A stretch of DNA of 64,000 nucleotides, taken from the NCBI GenBank assembly GCA_965215125.1, contig OZ244052.1, forward strand, positions 1,984,001 through 2,048,000, read 5' to 3'. The notes under the pieces are model-generated. The model had not been told where the DNA came from, did no database searches, and saw only the letters and a list, made by a program, of their open reading frames with translations. This DNA comes from an uncultured candidatus Porisulfidus sp. (GTDB taxonomy: Bacteria > Pseudomonadota > Gammaproteobacteria > Poriferisulfidales > Oxydemutatoraceae). The stretch's first letter is position 1. Each line of letters starts with the position of its first letter. Of the stretch, positions 12,150 through 52,736 are shown in pieces. The translations under genes and the position numbers were made by a program.

Positions 12150-14078
12150 GTGAACGGGCGAATACAACAGCTCGCCGTATCGGGCATGCTTATGCTTGCG
12201 TGTCACGGTGTTTTTGCAAACCAGCTATTACAAAAGCAAAGAACCTTATATCTCAAAGCCGAACAAACGCTCAAGCAAGGACACGGTGCTTTCTTTTCAC
12301 AACAGCGTGATTTGCTAAGCGACTATCCGTTGTACCCTTATCTGTTGTATCTAGATATGGCAAGACGCATCGCATCTGTGGAAACCAAGACCATCGTCGA
12401 TTTTCTAAATTTCTATGACGGCACACCGGTTGCCGACAAATTGCGCTATAAATGGTTGAAGCATCTGGTAACTAGAAATAATTGGCAACTATTTGCACAA
12501 CACTATCGGGCCGGCCGGTATTACTCGGATAAAGAACTCGCTTGTTTTTATGCGCAGAGTCTGCTACGGAGCAATCGTTTTAATGAACTACGTGCTTTGG
12601 CAAAACAACTATGGTTAGTCAATTTCTCTCAACCTTCGGAGTGCGATGCCGTTTTTCTATGGGGCAGACAAACTCGAGCGATTGACCAAGACCTGATATG
12701 GCAAAGGATTCTATTGGTTGTCAAAGGCGGTCGTTTGAGCCTTGCCGATTATCTCGCAAAGCAATTGGATGCCGATACACGCAAATGGTATGCTCTGCTC
12801 AAACAAGCCCATTCTCATCCGTTCAAAGCATTGGCAGAAATAGAAAGCCACTCAAAACATTCTCCATTTCTGCACCAAGTGCTTTTATATAGTCTGTGGC
12901 GGACACGAAACGAAGACTTACATAGAACGCACGCTTTGTGGAAAGGCATGGAGCGGTCTTTTAGACCTTATTCCGATGTCTACGAACACGCACGCAAAGA
13001 TTTAGGTATTTCTGCGTGCTGGCAATTAGAACCCGAGATAGGGTTGTACTATCTATCGTCCCTCGATGTTGCCGCTGCCGATGAGAATTTTTATCATTGG
13101 CGCATACGGTGTGCGCTTCGTTTGCAGAAATGGAAAACGGTTTTAGAAACTATTGAAGCATTAGACGAACCGAACCGAACGAGTAGCAGATGGCTTTACT
13201 GGAAAGCACGAGCACTCGAGCGTTTGGGAAGAGACGAAGAGGCAATGGCTACATGGAGACGCGGTGCCTCCGAGGCAAGTTATTACGGCTATTTGGCCGC
13301 CGACCGTATCGGCGCACCGTATGCGTTGTCTACCGTACTTCCCGAAGTCGAGCGAGCGACCCTAAACAAAGTTAAAGACTCGGATACGATGAAGCGAGTA
13401 TACGAGTTTTATGATATGGATAGGATTTTTGATGCCCGGCGAGAAATGCTATATCTGTTGCCTACAATGAGTAAGGACGAACGTCTAGGTATTGCTTTAC
13501 TATGCAGACAGTGGGGTTGGGCTACTTGTGCGATTGAAGCACTGAGCGACCCGATGTTTTGGCATAAAGAATTAGAGCTGCGTTTTCCTATGCCGTATGG
13601 CGATCTCGTCGCTGCCCAAGCTCGTCAAGCCGATCTGCCGGCGCACTGGATTTATGCGGTAATGCGCCGCGAGAGTGCGTTCATAGAAGATATTAAATCG
13701 TCGGCAGGCGCACTGGGTTTGATGCAACTGATGCCGGCGACCGCTCGTCGCGTTGCTCAAGGTGCAAAGCTAAGTTATGCCTCTAATCGGTCGCTATTGC
13801 AACCCACGCTGAATATGCGGCTGGGGAGTACTTATCTAAGGCAAATGTACCTCGTCAACGACCGAAATTGGGCAGCGGCACTTGCCTCGTACAACGCCGG
13901 CCCTCATCGCGTTAAAAAGTGGAAATCGCAATCACCGGTATACGATGCAGATATCTGGATAGAGACGATACCGTTTGTCGAAACTCGTCGTTATGTAAGG
14001 GCTGTTTTGTTCTATACGGTTGTCTATTATTACAAGCTCCACCATAAGGCGATACGACTGAAAACTCTGGTACAGTAA
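12150..14078 (+). CDS. slt: soluble lytic murein transglycosylase (Slt70-like)
   Basis: Signal peptide, YPLYPYL, RRESAF, GALGLMQLMP, ASYNAGP, IPFVETRRYV. Confidence 0.92.
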   Translation: MNGRIQQLAVSGMLMLACHGVFANQLLQKQRTLYLKAEQTLKQGHGAFFSQQRDLLSDYPLYPYLLYLDMARRIASVETKTIVDFLNFYDGTPVADKLRYKWLKHLVTRNNWQLFAQHYRAGRYYSDKELACFYAQSLLRSNRFNELRALAKQLWLVNFSQPSECDAVFLWGRQTRAIDQDLIWQRILLVVKGGRLSLADYLAKQLDADTRKWYALLKQAHSHPFKALAEIESHSKHSPFLHQVLLYSLWRTRNEDLHRTHALWKGMERSFRPYSDVYEHARKDLGISACWQLEPEIGLYYLSSLDVAAADENFYHWRIRCALRLQKWKTVLETIEALDEPNRTSSRWLYWKARALERLGRDEEAMATWRRGASEASYYGYLAADRIGAPYALSTVLPEVERATLNKVKDSDTMKRVYEFYDMDRIFDARREMLYLLPTMSKDERLGIALLCRQWGWATCAIEALSDPMFWHKELELRFPMPYGDLVAAQARQADLPAHWIYAVMRRESAFIEDIKSSAGALGLMQLMPATARRVAQGAKLSYASNRSLLQPTLNMRLGSTYLRQMYLVNDRNWAAALASYNAGPHRVKKWKSQSPVYDADIWIETIPFVETRRYVRAVLFYTVVYYYKLHHKAIRLKTLVQ

Positions 14079-14099
14079 ATTTAGCAGATTGGATATTGG

Positions 14100-14148
14100 T
14101 CCATTCCCCTCCTATGGAGGGGTGGCAGGCTTCGCCTGACGGGGTGGT
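14100..14148. repeat. CCCCTCC-GGAGGGG hairpin plus CAGGC-GCCTG hairpin repeat
   Basis: attcccctcctatggaggggtggcaggcttcgcctgacggggtgg; related copies near 9500, 22965, 23640, 46215, 48238, 52610. Confidence 0.85.
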
Positions 14149-14260
14149 CGCAGAAGCTGGGCTGTTGAAAAAGTGCAGACATCGCACAAATCCAACCGCT
14201 TTGCGCCGTATAATTATCCAACCCACCTGTAGGGGCAGACTGATATGATGCCTTATTAAA

Positions 14261-14266
14261 AGTCAA
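14261..14266 (-). promoter_or_regulatory. -35 box (TTGACT) at the IS110 right end, half of the circle-junction promoter
   Basis: In the reconstructed circle it lies exactly 17 bp from TATATT in the left end. Confidence 0.75.
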
Positions 14267-14317
14267 GTTATTTTATTCGTTTTTTATCTTTTTCTATCTC
14301 CTCTTCTGAGTATCAAT

Positions 14318-15304
14318 TTAGGACGCAGATACGCAACAATAATTCGGGTCAAACGGTTTCTTGTGCTTGAGTATTCCGTAAATGATACGCGTCAGTTTAT
14401 GGGCGCAAGCAACAATAACCTGCTTTTTGGTTAAATCCGGACGCCGCCGGCTTAACTGGTCGGCGAACGCACGGACGATTGGGTTATGAACCCGAGCCGA
14501 GAGTGCCGCCATAAATAGTGCGGTGCGCAGGTGTGCATCGCCAATTTTAGAGATGTGCGCCTTCGCCTCGTAGTTGCCGGATTGCTTGCGCATCGGAGTG
14601 ATGCCGATATAGGCGGCAAGTTGCTTTGGGTGTTGAAACGTATTATCATCAAAAGCTGCACATAGGGTGGCTGCGGTTTGAGTTCCGATTCCAGTAATAG
14701 AGCAGAGCAATTGATACTGCTGTGTGAGTTGTTCGTCTTCAGCGATGATTTCGTAAAGTAAGGCGTCACACTCATGGATTTGTTTCTGGAGGTGAGCGAG
14801 TTCTGCAGCTGCCTTCTTTTTGAGCTGCATACTGCGCAGCGTCTTTGCACAGTTGCTTAACTGCGTATGGGACTTGGTTAATTGCCGGCGCCATTTCAGT
14901 GTATCTCTCAAGGCGAATACTGCTTCGGTAGGCTGTTCCCAGTCTTGAATATCACCGACTGCAAATGCGAAGCGTGCGATGAGTTGCGCATCAACGCCAT
15001 CGGTTTTATTACGCATACCCAGCGTTTTGCGGTAGCTCGCGACCTGTACAGGTGGCACAATCGTGATGGGATGTTGGTCATAGCTTTCCATGCACAGGTC
15101 TAGCTCAAAACCGCCGGTTGCCTCAACGCAGAGGCGACACTGTTGCGCACCATGCTCGGTAGCCCAAGATAACAGTTGTTTGATGCCTTGGGCATCACTA
15201 CTAAATTGTTGCTCGGCAAAACTATTATCAGTGAATAATAGAGCCGCCTCTAAAGTGTCTTTAGAGACATCAACGCCAATCGTGACGGGTTGTTTGTTTT
15301 CCAT
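14318..15304 (-). CDS. IS110-family DEDD recombinase/transposase (328 aa)
   Basis: GVDVSK, VEATG and KTDGVDA (D-E-D-D), SITGIG, AAYIGITP, KQSG (catalytic Ser), HISKIG, AHKL. Confidence 0.96.
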   Translation of the reverse strand: MENKQPVTIGVDVSKDTLEAALLFTDNSFAEQQFSSDAQGIKQLLSWATEHGAQQCRLCVEATGGFELDLCMESYDQHPITIVPPVQVASYRKTLGMRNKTDGVDAQLIARFAFAVGDIQDWEQPTEAVFALRDTLKWRRQLTKSHTQLSNCAKTLRSMQLKKKAAAELAHLQKQIHECDALLYEIIAEDEQLTQQYQLLCSITGIGTQTAATLCAAFDDNTFQHPKQLAAYIGITPMRKQSGNYEAKAHISKIGDAHLRTALFMAALSARVHNPIVRAFADQLSRRRPDLTKKQVIVACAHKLTRIIYGILKHKKPFDPNYCCVSAS

Positions 15305-15339
15305 AATAAATTACTCCATAAGGGTTGGTTAATGAATGA

Positions 15340-15540
15340 AATACTAGGTATCAAACACAGTTTAGGAAAGTATGACTACGCCGCCCAAACAGATGAATAC
15401 GAGATCTAAAGTCCCAAGCTGCCTTTCGAGCTCTATAGTCATAACGCCGGAGGAGTGCTTTTCATACCATCAGGCTTTAATGCCTCGTCCGTCCTGCAGC
15501 GTGTCTCCTCCGACTTCCTAGGCACTGCATCTACCTAAGC
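15340..15540 (-). ncRNA. predicted IS110 bridge RNA with target-binding and donor-binding loops; ends approximate
   Basis: Two stem-loops with internal loops, stems 15505-15514/15446-15455 and 15436-15443/15371-15378. Loop segments match the REP target and the donor junction. Confidence 0.8.
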
Positions 15541-15570
15541 GTTTATCTTATATCAAATAAGCCAGGGTTT

Positions 15571-15576
15571 AATATA
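15571..15576 (-). promoter_or_regulatory. -10 box (TATATT) at the IS110 left end
   Basis: 2 bp inside the core; pairs with TTGACT at a 17-bp spacer only after circularisation. Confidence 0.75.
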
Positions 15577-15890
15577 TCTGTCCGCCCTAAAGTTCCGTTC
15601 TGCACAGCCGTAACCGCTTGCGCCGTATGGTTTTGGTTTCCATAAATTGGATGAATGAATGTATAAATCGTGCAGGCGCAACGCGTTACGGGCAGAATAG
15701 AGCCGCCGATTGAGCCGGTAGGTCAATCGGCAATTCAATTGAAGTCCGCCCCTACGGTGTATGAAATACTTTTTCAACAGCCCCAGCGTATCTGCACAAG
15801 TATAGTGCTAGTCCTGACGAGACAAACTACCGGATTTTATGGTATGCTATAGTTTCTAGCAAGGTCTCGACGACCGAATAGGAGGGGAAA

Positions 15891-17747
15891 ATGAATGGTG
15901 ATTTACATAGTCTATCAAGAATAGTAAGTACATCAAATGGTTATCTGAGATTTAATCACAGCACCGGTAATCTGCAGACTAACGGCGGTAATTTTCTAAG
16001 CAGACTGGTAGTCTGGATACGTTTCAAAACCAGTTCGAGTTATAGAAGTTCAGTCTTAGATGCCAAGCGTCGGATTATGGAATCGATGTTATCCGATAGT
16101 GTCTACGGCGAAGACTTTCGTCAAAAAATAGAAGGCTTAGATAGAAGGCATGGATTTTTCTTCAACGATAAACCTCTGTCGGCAAGAAAAGTACGTCGCT
16201 TTATAAATGATGTAACGCAAGATGTGAATCAAGTACTTCATCGGGAAAGGTCCCAGGAGGAATTAAGCAAAGGTTTGGTTGATTGGGTATGCGGCAAAGG
16301 CAACACCATAGCGAGCGGTGAGACTTTCGAAGATAATCTACATGCGATGCTCGTCGAGAAACTGCAAGATGAACATGGTATCACAGCGGCGGATGTCGAT
16401 CTAAAGGGGATAGGTGACGAGATCCATCAAGCCTCCTTGAATGATCGAGAAGGGATGGCGACTGTCACCGACGGTGCGCAAGCTACCGTGCATGTAAGCA
16501 AGGCTATGTCTCGTATTTTGGAGGGGCGTATTGCCGATGCACGCTCGGTGAACCAAGCAAAATTATGCAGGCGGTTATCTGTTTCGGGCTTGTCCGAGAC
16601 GGAAATGGACACGGTAAATGCGGAGATTGCCGCATCTAAAATTACAACGATGGATGAATTAGACCAACATGTAAATCGCTTAATCATACTAAAAGTAGAC
16701 GAGGAATTTCCGCAATTACTTCAACGAGCACAAGCGGAACAAGATTTTAACGGCGAACTTGCGCAACTATCCGAGCTGAGGGCACAATTAAAAGAAGAGC
16801 TTACACGGCAGAGCGATCATCGGATGTTGTCGATGCAGGCTGCCCGCGACAAAGTCGGTCAATTATTAAATCGTTGGCTTGAAAACAAGCAACAAGCGAT
16901 CGCCGCAGCGCAAGAGAGTCGACACACAAGCATAGTCGATGTATTAACCAAACTTGCATTACAGGAACCTCGGGCGCGCAAAGAGCATATTCAATCTTTT
17001 AGACAAACGATAGAGCAGACCTTGGATGAGATTTACGAAAAAAACCGTTCCGATTATGAAGCACTCAATGTTGCTAAGGCAAAACTTTTCTCCATGTTAT
17101 ATAAATTTGATCGCCGAGAAGTATTATTGAAGCGTTTGCAGGATTTGGTTAAAGAGACGCAAACGGCAAGTTCTCTGTTTGAAGACGATATTCGGCAAGT
17201 TCCGGACATTAAAGGCGTGGCTAAAAGATATGTTGAATCGGTGAGTAAGCCCATGGTACGAAGCCACGCAAAGGTGTCGGCTTTAAGAGGAAGAATTCCG
17301 GATTATATTTTCCATACCATGCTGGAGAAAGTAAGCAAGGGTTATGTATGGGAACCGAGGTTTGTTTCTGCGGCAAACGGGATGCACATAGCCAACCTGA
17401 CTAAAAAGGAAAACGAAGGGCTTTATGCGTTATTGGACTCACCGCAAGTTGCGCGAAAAAGAATAGGTAGCAGGGAAGACTTCGTTAGTTTTAGCTTAGA
17501 CGATTTACTCAAATCGATGCTGGGTCCTAAAAACATAGATAATCACAAAAAAAGGAGACAAGCCATAGATCAAGTGGTGCCCGACGAAGTTAAAGTCAAA
17601 CTGTTGGATGAATTGGATCGTCAGTTGTTGATGGTACGGAGCAGGGTTATGGATGAAGAAGATGCGAATGCTTTATTTGAAAGAGGAACGGTTAGATTTT
17701 TACGCGCCCAAGACATTAATTTTGAAGCGATGACCGCAAAGGAATGA
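15891..17747 (+). CDS. hypothetical helical protein, paralog 1 of a tandem trio (candidate secreted effector)
   Basis: 618 aa, AGGAGG RBS, collinear similarity to the next two ORFs. Confidence 0.8.
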   Translation: MNGDLHSLSRIVSTSNGYLRFNHSTGNLQTNGGNFLSRLVVWIRFKTSSSYRSSVLDAKRRIMESMLSDSVYGEDFRQKIEGLDRRHGFFFNDKPLSARKVRRFINDVTQDVNQVLHRERSQEELSKGLVDWVCGKGNTIASGETFEDNLHAMLVEKLQDEHGITAADVDLKGIGDEIHQASLNDREGMATVTDGAQATVHVSKAMSRILEGRIADARSVNQAKLCRRLSVSGLSETEMDTVNAEIAASKITTMDELDQHVNRLIILKVDEEFPQLLQRAQAEQDFNGELAQLSELRAQLKEELTRQSDHRMLSMQAARDKVGQLLNRWLENKQQAIAAAQESRHTSIVDVLTKLALQEPRARKEHIQSFRQTIEQTLDEIYEKNRSDYEALNVAKAKLFSMLYKFDRREVLLKRLQDLVKETQTASSLFEDDIRQVPDIKGVAKRYVESVSKPMVRSHAKVSALRGRIPDYIFHTMLEKVSKGYVWEPRFVSAANGMHIANLTKKENEGLYALLDSPQVARKRIGSREDFVSFSLDDLLKSMLGPKNIDNHKKRRQAIDQVVPDEVKVKLLDELDRQLLMVRSRVMDEEDANALFERGTVRFLRAQDINFEAMTAKE

Positions 17748-34288: not shown

Positions 34289-34582
34289 GGGGCTGTTGAA
34301 AATGTATCGGCAGCGCAAAAATCCAACCGCTTGCGCCATCCAATTACGCAAACCGCCTGTAGGGGCGGACTAGCATGTCCGCCCGAAACGCGTTGCGCCG
34401 CCACGATTTATACATTCATCCATCCAATTTATGGAAACCAAAACCATGTGGCGTAGGCGGTTGGGTTTGTGCCGAACGGTAGTTAAGGGCAGACATATAA
34501 GTCTGCCCCTACGGGTGGTTTGTAAATATTCACGGCGCAAGCGGTTGCAGTTGTGCAAAAACAATACTTTTTCAACAGCCCC
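34289..34582. mobile_element. MITE-like element (294 bp) carrying two inverted REP hairpins
   Basis: Ends GGGGCTGTTGAAAATGTAT and ATACTTTTTCAACAGCCCC; internal REPs at 34359-34384 and 34486-34512. Confidence 0.8.
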
Positions 34583-46174: not shown

Positions 46175-46482
46175 GGGGCTGTTGAAAAAGTATCCACGAA
46201 CTGTAGGACGGTACATTCCCCTCCTTGTAGGGGCGGACTCGTATGTCCGCCCTTAGGGTGGCAGGCTGTGCCTGACGGGGTGGTTGTCAAATATGGAAAC
46301 CATCATCGGGTGGCGCAAAGCGATCGGATTTGTGCAAGTATTAAACTTTAGGACGGACATCATTGAATTGTCGATTGAACCAGTAGGTCAATCGGCAGTG
46401 CTATCCTACCTCTGCGGTAAGTAAACATAAATTGGGTGGGTAAACACATTATTCGTGCAAAACGATATTTTTTCAATACTCC
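46175..46482. mobile_element. MITE-like composite repeat
   Basis: GGGGCTGTTGAAAAAGT left end, degenerate TTTTTTCAATACTCC right end, GATTC directly on both flanks; contains REP 46227-46253. Confidence 0.75.
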
Positions 46483-52555: not shown

Positions 52556-52736
52556 GGGCTGTTGAAAAAGTATCCATGAACCGTAGGGGCGGATTTGCAT
52601 GTCTGCCCTTAGGGTGGCAGGCTGTGCCTGACGGGGTGGTTTATTCCCCTCCTTGTAGGGGCGGACTCGTATGTCCGCCCTTAGGGTGGCAGGCGCAATA
52701 GAACCGCCTATTGACCTACAAGTTCAATCGGCGGTT
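52556..52736. repeat. composite repeat between convergent phoU and argF
   Basis: MITE-type end, REPs at 52583-52609 and 52655-52681, CAGGC hairpin and TCAATCGG hairpin. Confidence 0.9.

Follow-up and report, generated by a model that had tools for sequence, protein, structure and literature searches.

A full-length IS110-family element with a CA core in a REP hairpin of an uncultured candidatus Porisulfidus bacterium

We analysed a stretch of 64,000 nucleotides (nt) from the genome of an uncultured candidatus Porisulfidus sp. (contig OZ244052.1; the whole stretch is called the window below), which carries an insertion sequence (IS) on its minus strand. This is very probably a full-length IS110-family IS, of the IS110 group and with an IS621-like layout, that was inserted into the loop of a repetitive extragenic palindromic (REP) hairpin by conservative recombination at the dinucleotide CA. 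The evidence consists of the anatomy of the element, the distribution of its copies, the conserved residues of its recombinase and the covariation between its guide segments and flanks, all of which are observed directly. At the level of sequence, every feature that marks the IS110 group is present, one of them, the left target guide, in part. An earlier note on this DNA had proposed an IS621-type layout, and each of its components is found here: the recombinase domains, the catalytic residues, a 2-base-pair (bp) core at both junctions, a long and a short end, a split promoter and two covarying loops. Its further claim that the core differs from the CT of IS621 holds in every copy examined (CA in 34/34).

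By analogy with IS621, the element would excise as a circle, in which the joined right and left ends would build a sigma-70 promoter (TTGACT-17 bp-TATATT). This promoter would drive a bridge RNA of roughly 200 nt from the left end, together with the recombinase behind it. The RNA would carry two internal loops, the second of which would read the joined ends of the element itself, and a tetramer of the DEDD/serine recombinase would exchange strands at CA. It is by this analogy that we infer transcription, the circle, dependence on the RNA and current activity.

Anatomy of the element and its insertion site

On the element strand, the left junction reads ...CTTTAGGGCGGA, then CA, then GATATATT... 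(in a longer reading, GATATATTAAACC...), and the right junction reads ...TAAGGCAT (in a longer reading, ...TTAATAAGGCAT), then CA, then the right flank TATCAGTCTGCCCCTAC. These are the CA junctions as the earlier note had written them, and their coordinates were confirmed by re-reading the sequence and verified piecewise. The minus-strand span 14246–15580 measures 1,335 bp and counts both CA copies, so the element itself is 1,333 bp long. Its ends are unequal, with 276 nt on the left and 72 nt on the right (each including the core), and it lacks terminal inverted repeats (9 of 40 positions agree when the ends are compared in register, 17 after the best shift); both properties had been described in the earlier note. 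The two flanks are the two halves of one REP hairpin, split by the element. Uninterrupted REPs of the same family lie at window positions 34359, 46227 and 52655 (three pattern matches versus none in 100 shuffles). The REP previously chosen for comparison is indeed present at 52655–52681, and the identical sequence recurs at 46227. Under a strict pattern, the genome holds 52 REPs, 6 of them in the window.

The same CA is used throughout a set of 34 copies, of which 8 lie in this genome (G000), 7 in G003, 16 in G004 and 3 in G001; the set excludes an internally deleted copy, remnants and the fragments found in G002. All eight full-length copies of this genome, which is a single contig of 2.22 Mb, stand at the same CA between a left REP arm (...GGC(G/A)GA) and the REP loop with its right arm. 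The core is CA in all 34 copies of the four genomes and, because the bases next to it differ, the overlap is exactly 2 bp. Placement at this CA in REP loops had been suggested as a check on other copies, and it is found in 8/8 full-length copies here and in 24/26 copies of the three congeners. This gives 32/34 copies in REP loops, and the other two immediately follow a left-end fragment from another copy.

The recombinase has 328 residues, an open reading frame (ORF) that is open throughout, and the DEDD residues and SG serine ascribed to it earlier, which align to those of IS621; a GGAG stands 9 nt 5′ of its ATG. It matches the Pfam domains DEDD_Tnp_IS110 (PF01548, E 5e-20) and Transposase_20 (PF02371, E 2e-25), both above the gathering score, and the NCBIfam model NF033542 ('IS110 family RNA-guided transposase') with 215.5 bits against a cutoff of 140. 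The best solved structure is the IS621 transposase (8wt6, E 1e-42, residues 8–321 on 9–321), followed by the ISCro4 transposase (9t56, E 4e-42). D12, E61, D102, D105 and S242-G243 align under the catalytic residues of IS621, which the IS621 report gives as D11, E60, D102, D105, S241 and G242 (PMC11208158). Among 19 members of the clade, D12, D105 and S242 are invariant and D102 nearly so; E61 is not among the conserved columns listed there. Identity to IS621 is roughly 31% (99/316 columns in a hand count of the printed alignment), and identity with IS621 itself is thereby ruled out.

The clade is narrow. In a collection of 5.8 billion proteins, about 20 are 50–69% identical to the recombinase, the closest at 67–69%, after which identity falls to 37%. 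Relatives at 50–72% identity were found in the same genus only. Across 40 related genomes scanned, close matches occur in three of the four other genomes of the genus (the fourth has fragments only), and 14 further genomes from the family yielded none. A metagenome scan for closer relatives returned a best match of 36% identity, and its loci were not used for covariation. A protein search of a plasmid collection gave nothing above 34% identity, the sole name there being the generic 'IS110 family transposase'.

Also consistent with an IS110-group layout is a promoter divided between the two ends. TTGACT (TTGATT in most relatives) lies 15 bp from the tip of the right end, and TATATT occupies positions 5–10 of the left end. 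Judged from sequence only, ends joined via a single CA would give TTGA(C/T)T-17 bp-TATATT in 34/34 copies. A consensus scan of the integrated state found no sigma-70-like site upstream of the left end. The arrangement is as described for IS621 and ISPpu10.

Single-sequence and consensus folds of the left end agree on a 5′ stem-loop and an outer stem that encloses two hairpins with large internal loops. Mean column identity over the left end is 94%, and the differences cluster within the four segments of the two loops that are predicted to be guides. Among the 12 distinct versions of the left end, the stem of the first hairpin is invariant and the loop segments vary.

Predicted guide segments and the sequences they face

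The predicted right target guide (RTG) varies with the REP loop that it faces. Over the 34 copies, it forms 228 of 238 Watson–Crick pairs with its own flank and is perfect (7/7) in 25 copies; none of 10,000 shuffles of guide labels, made without regard to the relatedness of the copies or to REP types that differ between genomes, reached this pairing. Four variants account for the set: UUGCAUG, with 4 copies at CA|TGCAA and 1 at CA|TGCCA; UAGCAUG, with 5 copies at CA|TGCTA and 1 at CA|TGTTA; UAACAUG, with 16 copies at CA|TGTTA and 2 at CA|TGCTA; and UGGUAUG, with 3 copies at CA|TGCCA, 1 at CA|TATCA (the window copy) and 1 at CA|TGCAA. The variants sit at matching REP loops within single genomes as well (2/2 and 4/5 in G003; 1/1 and 13/15 in G004).

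The predicted donor guides follow the ends of the element in a similar way. The right donor guide (RDG) is perfect in 34/34 copies and includes a compensatory change, with CAGAT facing AUCUG in 11 copies and CAGGT facing ACCUG in 23. The natural variants of the RTG and RDG lend indirect support to the idea that recombination would depend on the RNA and be reprogrammable. The left donor guide (LDG), AAGGCA(U/G)C, matches at 8/8 positions in 3 copies and at 7/8 in 31, the mismatch falling at donor position 7, a position that tolerates mismatches in the IS621 screen. The left target guide (LTG) in the form GGACGGAC(A/G) matches GGGCGGA|CA at 6–8 of 9 positions.

The bases that follow the right guides reproduce a further property of IS621. 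The base after the RTG is A in 34/34 copies and complements donor position 7 (T), not target position 7 (A or G), and the base after the RDG is U in 33/34; this U could pair with the base at target position 7, which is A in 16 copies and G (a wobble pair) in 17, but could not pair with that at donor position 7. These handshake positions obey the IS621 rule in 33/34 copies; the handshake-guide concept and the 8-nt LDG of IS621 are taken from PMC11208158. Mutational scanning of ISPpu10, described in a preprint, found a loose left guide and a strict right guide. The strict right guides, the loose left target guide and the preserved handshake rule seen here agree with these bench results on other elements.

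Movement, a mosaic copy and alternative explanations

Copies in this genome fall into two subfamilies. Subfamily A comprises four copies that are 97–100% identical to the window copy, one of them with a 1-bp deletion, and one further A copy that is internally deleted. Subfamily B has four copies, with a DNA identity of 82% and a protein identity of about 70%, and a 1.1-kb insertion interrupts two of them. Two A copies at separate loci are 100% identical, as are two B copies, suggesting recent movement.

The locus itself also differs among genomes. The element lies between a lytic transglycosylase-like gene that ends at 14078 and a plus-strand 618-residue ORF (15891–17747). These two genes are adjacent in G001 and G004, without the element and with spacers of 240 and 452 bp versus 1,812 bp here; they are not adjacent in G003 and G002. 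Given the empty orthologous sites in G001 and G004, the element therefore either entered the site in this lineage or was precisely removed from it in the others. One contig in each of the public runs X1 and X5 joins 14245 to 15579, skipping 1,333 bp with 2 ambiguous bases, which is the form expected of an unoccupied REP. The joint was sought with 30 letters per side and a likeness threshold of 90 in runs kept as short contigs; because these sides are short and similar flank pairs occur elsewhere (4–5 mismatches), it is not assignable to this locus and is not counted as evidence.

The window copy is, judged by its diagnostic sites, a recombinant whose left end and first roughly 41 codons come from subfamily B and whose remaining gene and right end come from subfamily A. 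Of 272 sites that separate the subfamilies, 34/35 up to element position 399 are B-like and 235/237 from position 405 on are A-like. The mosaic ORF is open, and both ends, the promoter halves and the other listed parts are intact. Its B-type RTG, UGGUAUG, fits the unusual REP loop in which the copy sits, CA|TATCA, with 6 Watson–Crick pairs and 1 G-T pair. Either a B copy was inserted and then converted by an A copy, or a recombinant element was inserted.

A number of observations weigh against an RNA-guided, currently mobile IS110-group element. No circle-type joint was found among the 15 joints listed of 33, all from assembled contigs of public runs, and because the window copy is unique in the genome there is no sign of movement since the mosaic formed. 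The shuffle test of RTG pairing, as noted, ignores both the relatedness of the copies and the differences in REP type between genomes. The LTG is the weakest guide, matching at 5–8 of 9 positions in 33 copies and at 1 of 9 in the remaining copy. In 16 copies of the most prolific lineage, GAGAGGAUU faces GGGAGGG|CA with 5 Watson–Crick pairs and 1 G-U pair of 9, and alternative LTG registers in the G001/G004 lineage, compared by eye only, did not improve on the aligned one. All copies in this genome carry a single A-C mismatch in the LTG. Where the LTG and LDG would read the second core base (A), they have A, G or U, so that this guide position is not conserved, and the LTG of IS621 reads both core bases (PMC11208158). 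As for the RNA, covariation neither supports nor contradicts the hairpin stems because these are invariant; double changes occur in 2 of 63 predicted pairs, both in the outer stem of one sequence (G004 L038). The left end folds no better in energy than shuffled sequence (z = -0.95). A search of Rfam (E up to 1, window 13500–16500) found no family match for the left end, it not being established that Rfam 15 holds a bridge-RNA family. The single Rfam match is a chance match to a microRNA outside the element and was rejected.

Could the protein itself recognize the REP hairpin, by structure or sequence, leaving the matches between left end and flank incidental? Every target is a REP hairpin and the LTG match is loose, and in the ISPpu10 preprint the target stem-loop adds specificity beyond base pairing. 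The same source nevertheless finds base pairing essential, with a strict right guide and a permissive left one, which is the pattern seen here. Protein recognition also fails to account for four RTG variants that track four REP-loop variants, even inside single genomes, for an RDG that tracks a change in the element's own end, or for left-end variation that is concentrated in guide segments; we regard it as very improbable. Membership of the IS1111 group, whose elements have subterminal inverted repeats and encode a seekRNA downstream of the recombinase gene, is almost certainly wrong. That group has the same Pfam domains, and some of its members, such as ISPa11, also target REPs; however, PMC11187229, which reports this targeting, defines the group by a downstream non-coding region and subterminal inverted repeats. 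The non-coding region here is instead upstream (276 nt), the downstream end being just 72 nt; terminal inverted repeats are absent (9/40), and the order of strand matches in the loops is that of IS621.

A more serious alternative concerns the window copy alone, which might be a resident relic: a B insertion later changed by homologous recombination or gene conversion with an A copy beyond about position 400, possibly never transposed, and with a hybrid protein that may not suit its RNA. This would explain the single crossover at 399–405, why the copy is the sole one of its kind in the genome and why its RTG is of the B type, and it is in keeping with the dead copies in the same genome (one with the 1-bp deletion, one internally deleted and two interrupted by another IS). 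A relic would be less readily expected to retain a full-length, open 328-codon frame with all catalytic residues, or both ends and both halves of the junction promoter intact. The fit of the RTG to CA|TATCA, moreover, equals that of the same guide to CA|TGCCA, where three B copies lie, and exceeds that to CA|TGCAA (5 + 1), where the remaining B copy sits. We consider a relic possible, on the doubtful side, and favour an intact IS110-group element with a predicted bridge RNA.

Known systems, feature coordinates and minor observations

Compared with IS621 of Escherichia coli (8wt6–8wt9), the element shares a two-domain recombinase with D/E/D/D and S-G residues, REP insertion at a 2-bp core, a long left and a short right end, and a promoter rebuilt over the joined ends. 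The order of a target loop followed by a donor loop is the same, with 5′ sides pairing with bottom strands and 3′ sides with top strands, as are the 8-nt LDG that stops at the first core base, the tolerance of mismatch at donor position 7 and the handshake bases. The two differ in the core (CA here, CT in IS621), in the length of the natural RTG (7 nt here, 4 nt in IS621), in the pairing of the LTG with the second core base, which is not conserved here, in an extra outer stem round both loops here, in the host, which here is an uncultured bacterium, and in protein sequence, with the low identity given above. ISPpu9 of Pseudomonas putida is reportedly an IS110-family element that, like ISPpu10, inserts into REP hairpins and forms circles with a junction promoter. 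ISCro4/IS622 of Citrobacter rodentium (9t56) has the same architecture and is similarly distant in sequence, with a CT core rather than CA; according to a preprint, it recognizes 14 bases of target and donor round a dinucleotide core. ISPpu10, also of P. putida, is an IS110-family element that inserts in REP hairpins and forms circles with a junction promoter; it has a strict right and a permissive left guide, as in the natural data here, and a CT core versus CA.

What emerges is a sequence-distant, genus-restricted clade with a CA core that belongs to the known bridge-RNA mechanism and adds no new one, a class worked out in detail since 2024. A literature search for a CA core with bridge recombinases, the scope of which did not extend to supplementary orthologue tables, found no IS110 paper with 'CA core'. 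The tables of Durrant et al. 2024 and Perry et al. 2025 are said to contain thousands of orthologues and may well include CA-core elements, and because they may list them, CA cores are not claimed here as unreported. A further reading, possible but less likely than not, is of a genus-restricted natural CA-core system in which the LTG and LDG skip the second core base, the 7-nt RTG provides most of the discrimination among REP loops and, as the mosaic suggests, the RNA-coding left end can be exchanged between recombinases of about 70% identity.

Bridge recombinases are under development as programmable tools for DNA insertion, and the core is CT in IS621, ISCro4/IS622 and ISPpu10 alike. According to a preprint, cross-reaction between two bridge RNAs disappears with GT as a second core, at a cost in efficiency. 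Given the CT cores elsewhere and the weaker GT, a natural CA-core system with a long RTG makes a reasonable candidate orthogonal core. Were the mosaic active, its RNA scaffold and protein would tolerate each other across about 70% identity, and it would supply an efficient core orthogonal to CT. The 34 copies form a small natural data set on guide stringency and an example of guide reprogramming and module exchange. The host biology is ordinary: a REP-targeting IS has proliferated in a small genome and has undergone recombination and decay there.

Table 1 Features of the element in window coordinates, in element-strand order
Feature	Position	Strand	Basis
Left target flank (LT), left arm of split REP hairpin, CTTTAGGGCGGA	15581..15592	-	Same arm beside other copies
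CA core, left copy	15579..15580	-	CA at both junctions in 34/34 copies
Left end (LE), 276 nt including core, predicted to encode bridge RNA	15305..15580	-	Sequence, folds, alignment
TATATT, predicted -10 half of promoter, complete only when ends join in circle	15571..15576	-	34/34 copies
5′ stem-loop of predicted RNA	15538..15563	-	Consensus fold (alignment columns 3–28)
First internal-loop hairpin, predicted target-binding loop, stem CGGAGGAG / CUCCUCCG	15446..15514	-	Single-sequence and consensus folds
Predicted LTG GGACGGACG, same sense as LT + core (GGGCGGA|CA), would pair with bottom strand	15486..15494	-	7 Watson–Crick + 1 G-T of 9 here
Predicted RTG UGGUAUG, complementary to core + RT (CA|TATCA)	15463..15469	-	6 Watson–Crick + 1 G-T of 7 here
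Predicted target-loop handshake guide AA; first A complements donor position 7 (T), not target position 7 (A)	15461..15462	-	A in 34/34, donor T in 34/34
Second internal-loop hairpin, predicted donor-binding loop, stem UAUGACUA / UAGUCAUA	15371..15443	-	Single-sequence and consensus folds
Predicted LDG AAGGCAGC, same sense as last 7 nt of right end + first core base (AAGGCAT|C)	15418..15425	-	7/8 here
Predicted RDG AUCUG, complementary to core + first 3 nt of left end (CA|GAT)	15390..15394	-	5/5 in 34/34 copies
Outer stem, 3′ strand, pairs with 15515–15537, encloses both loops	15345..15368	-	Consensus fold
Recombinase gene, 328 residues, DEDD RuvC-like and Tnp domains; D12, E61, D102, D105, S242-G243	14318..15304	-	ORF, Pfam, NCBIfam, structure alignment
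Mosaic crossover interval, element positions 399–405; upstream part B, downstream part A	15176..15182	-	Diagnostic sites and sliding identities
Right end (RE), 72 nt including core	14246..14317	-	Junction reading
TTGACT, predicted -35 half of junction promoter	14261..14266	-	34/34 copies
CA core, right copy	14246..14247	-	Junction reading
Right target flank (RT), REP loop and right arm, TATCAGTCTGCCCCTAC	14229..14245	-	Junction reading

Several copies bear marks of secondary events. In L052 (G001) and L053 (G004), a left-end fragment (to about 78 and 55, respectively) replaces the left REP arm and is joined to a full copy at an internal CA, which suggests insertion into, or recombination with, a resident copy. 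The two interrupted B copies (L011:1866-3007 = G000:C1:298355-299496; G000:C1:764797-765934) carry the insertion of about 1.1 kb near element position 960; it encodes a 367-residue protein with helix-turn-helix and rve integrase-core domains and is a DDE-type IS nested in an IS110 element. The recombinase ORF holds AAGGCATCA (window 15177–15191, minus strand), which equals the 9 nt that close the right end, core included. The internally deleted copy (G000:C1:1428678-1429714) lacks element positions of about 106–390, and its deletion joins this AAGGCATCA site to the similar AAGGCATTAAA of the first hairpin, and looks like passage through a short repeat.

Solo left-end remnants of 32–110 nt lie outside the window at G000:C1 521885-521929, 1402490-1402591, 1981289-1981359, 1633291-1633322, 670310-670417, 585642-585709, 1334511-1334592 and 2109565-2109617. 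Several still adjoin a left REP arm, and that at 521885 has a REP half on either side; at 1334511 the first hairpin survives in diverged form, with a single compensatory change in its stem and a different loop sequence. These remnants look like scars of aberrant excision or deletion.

Weak matches to the C-terminal half of the recombinase (26–30% identity, mostly in 391-residue open frames) at G000:C1 550992-551378, 1057679-1058068, 1428098-1428484 and 933798-934028 may come from another element of IS110/IS1111 type, unrelated to this one, that the genome also holds. One of these matches adjoins the internally deleted copy, whose right flank is no REP.

As for the surroundings, tandem paralogues of the 618-residue ORF (about 40% identity) follow it directly in G001, G003 and G004. 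The REP hit by the element sits within a mosaic of several short repeat modules that recur round other insertion sites, and contig depth over the flanks exceeds that of adjoining unique sequence by one to two orders of magnitude. Another palindromic repeat, CCCCTCC-N3-6-GGAGGGG, is present in 157 copies genome-wide, and 7 of these lie in the window, one of them at 14103–14121.

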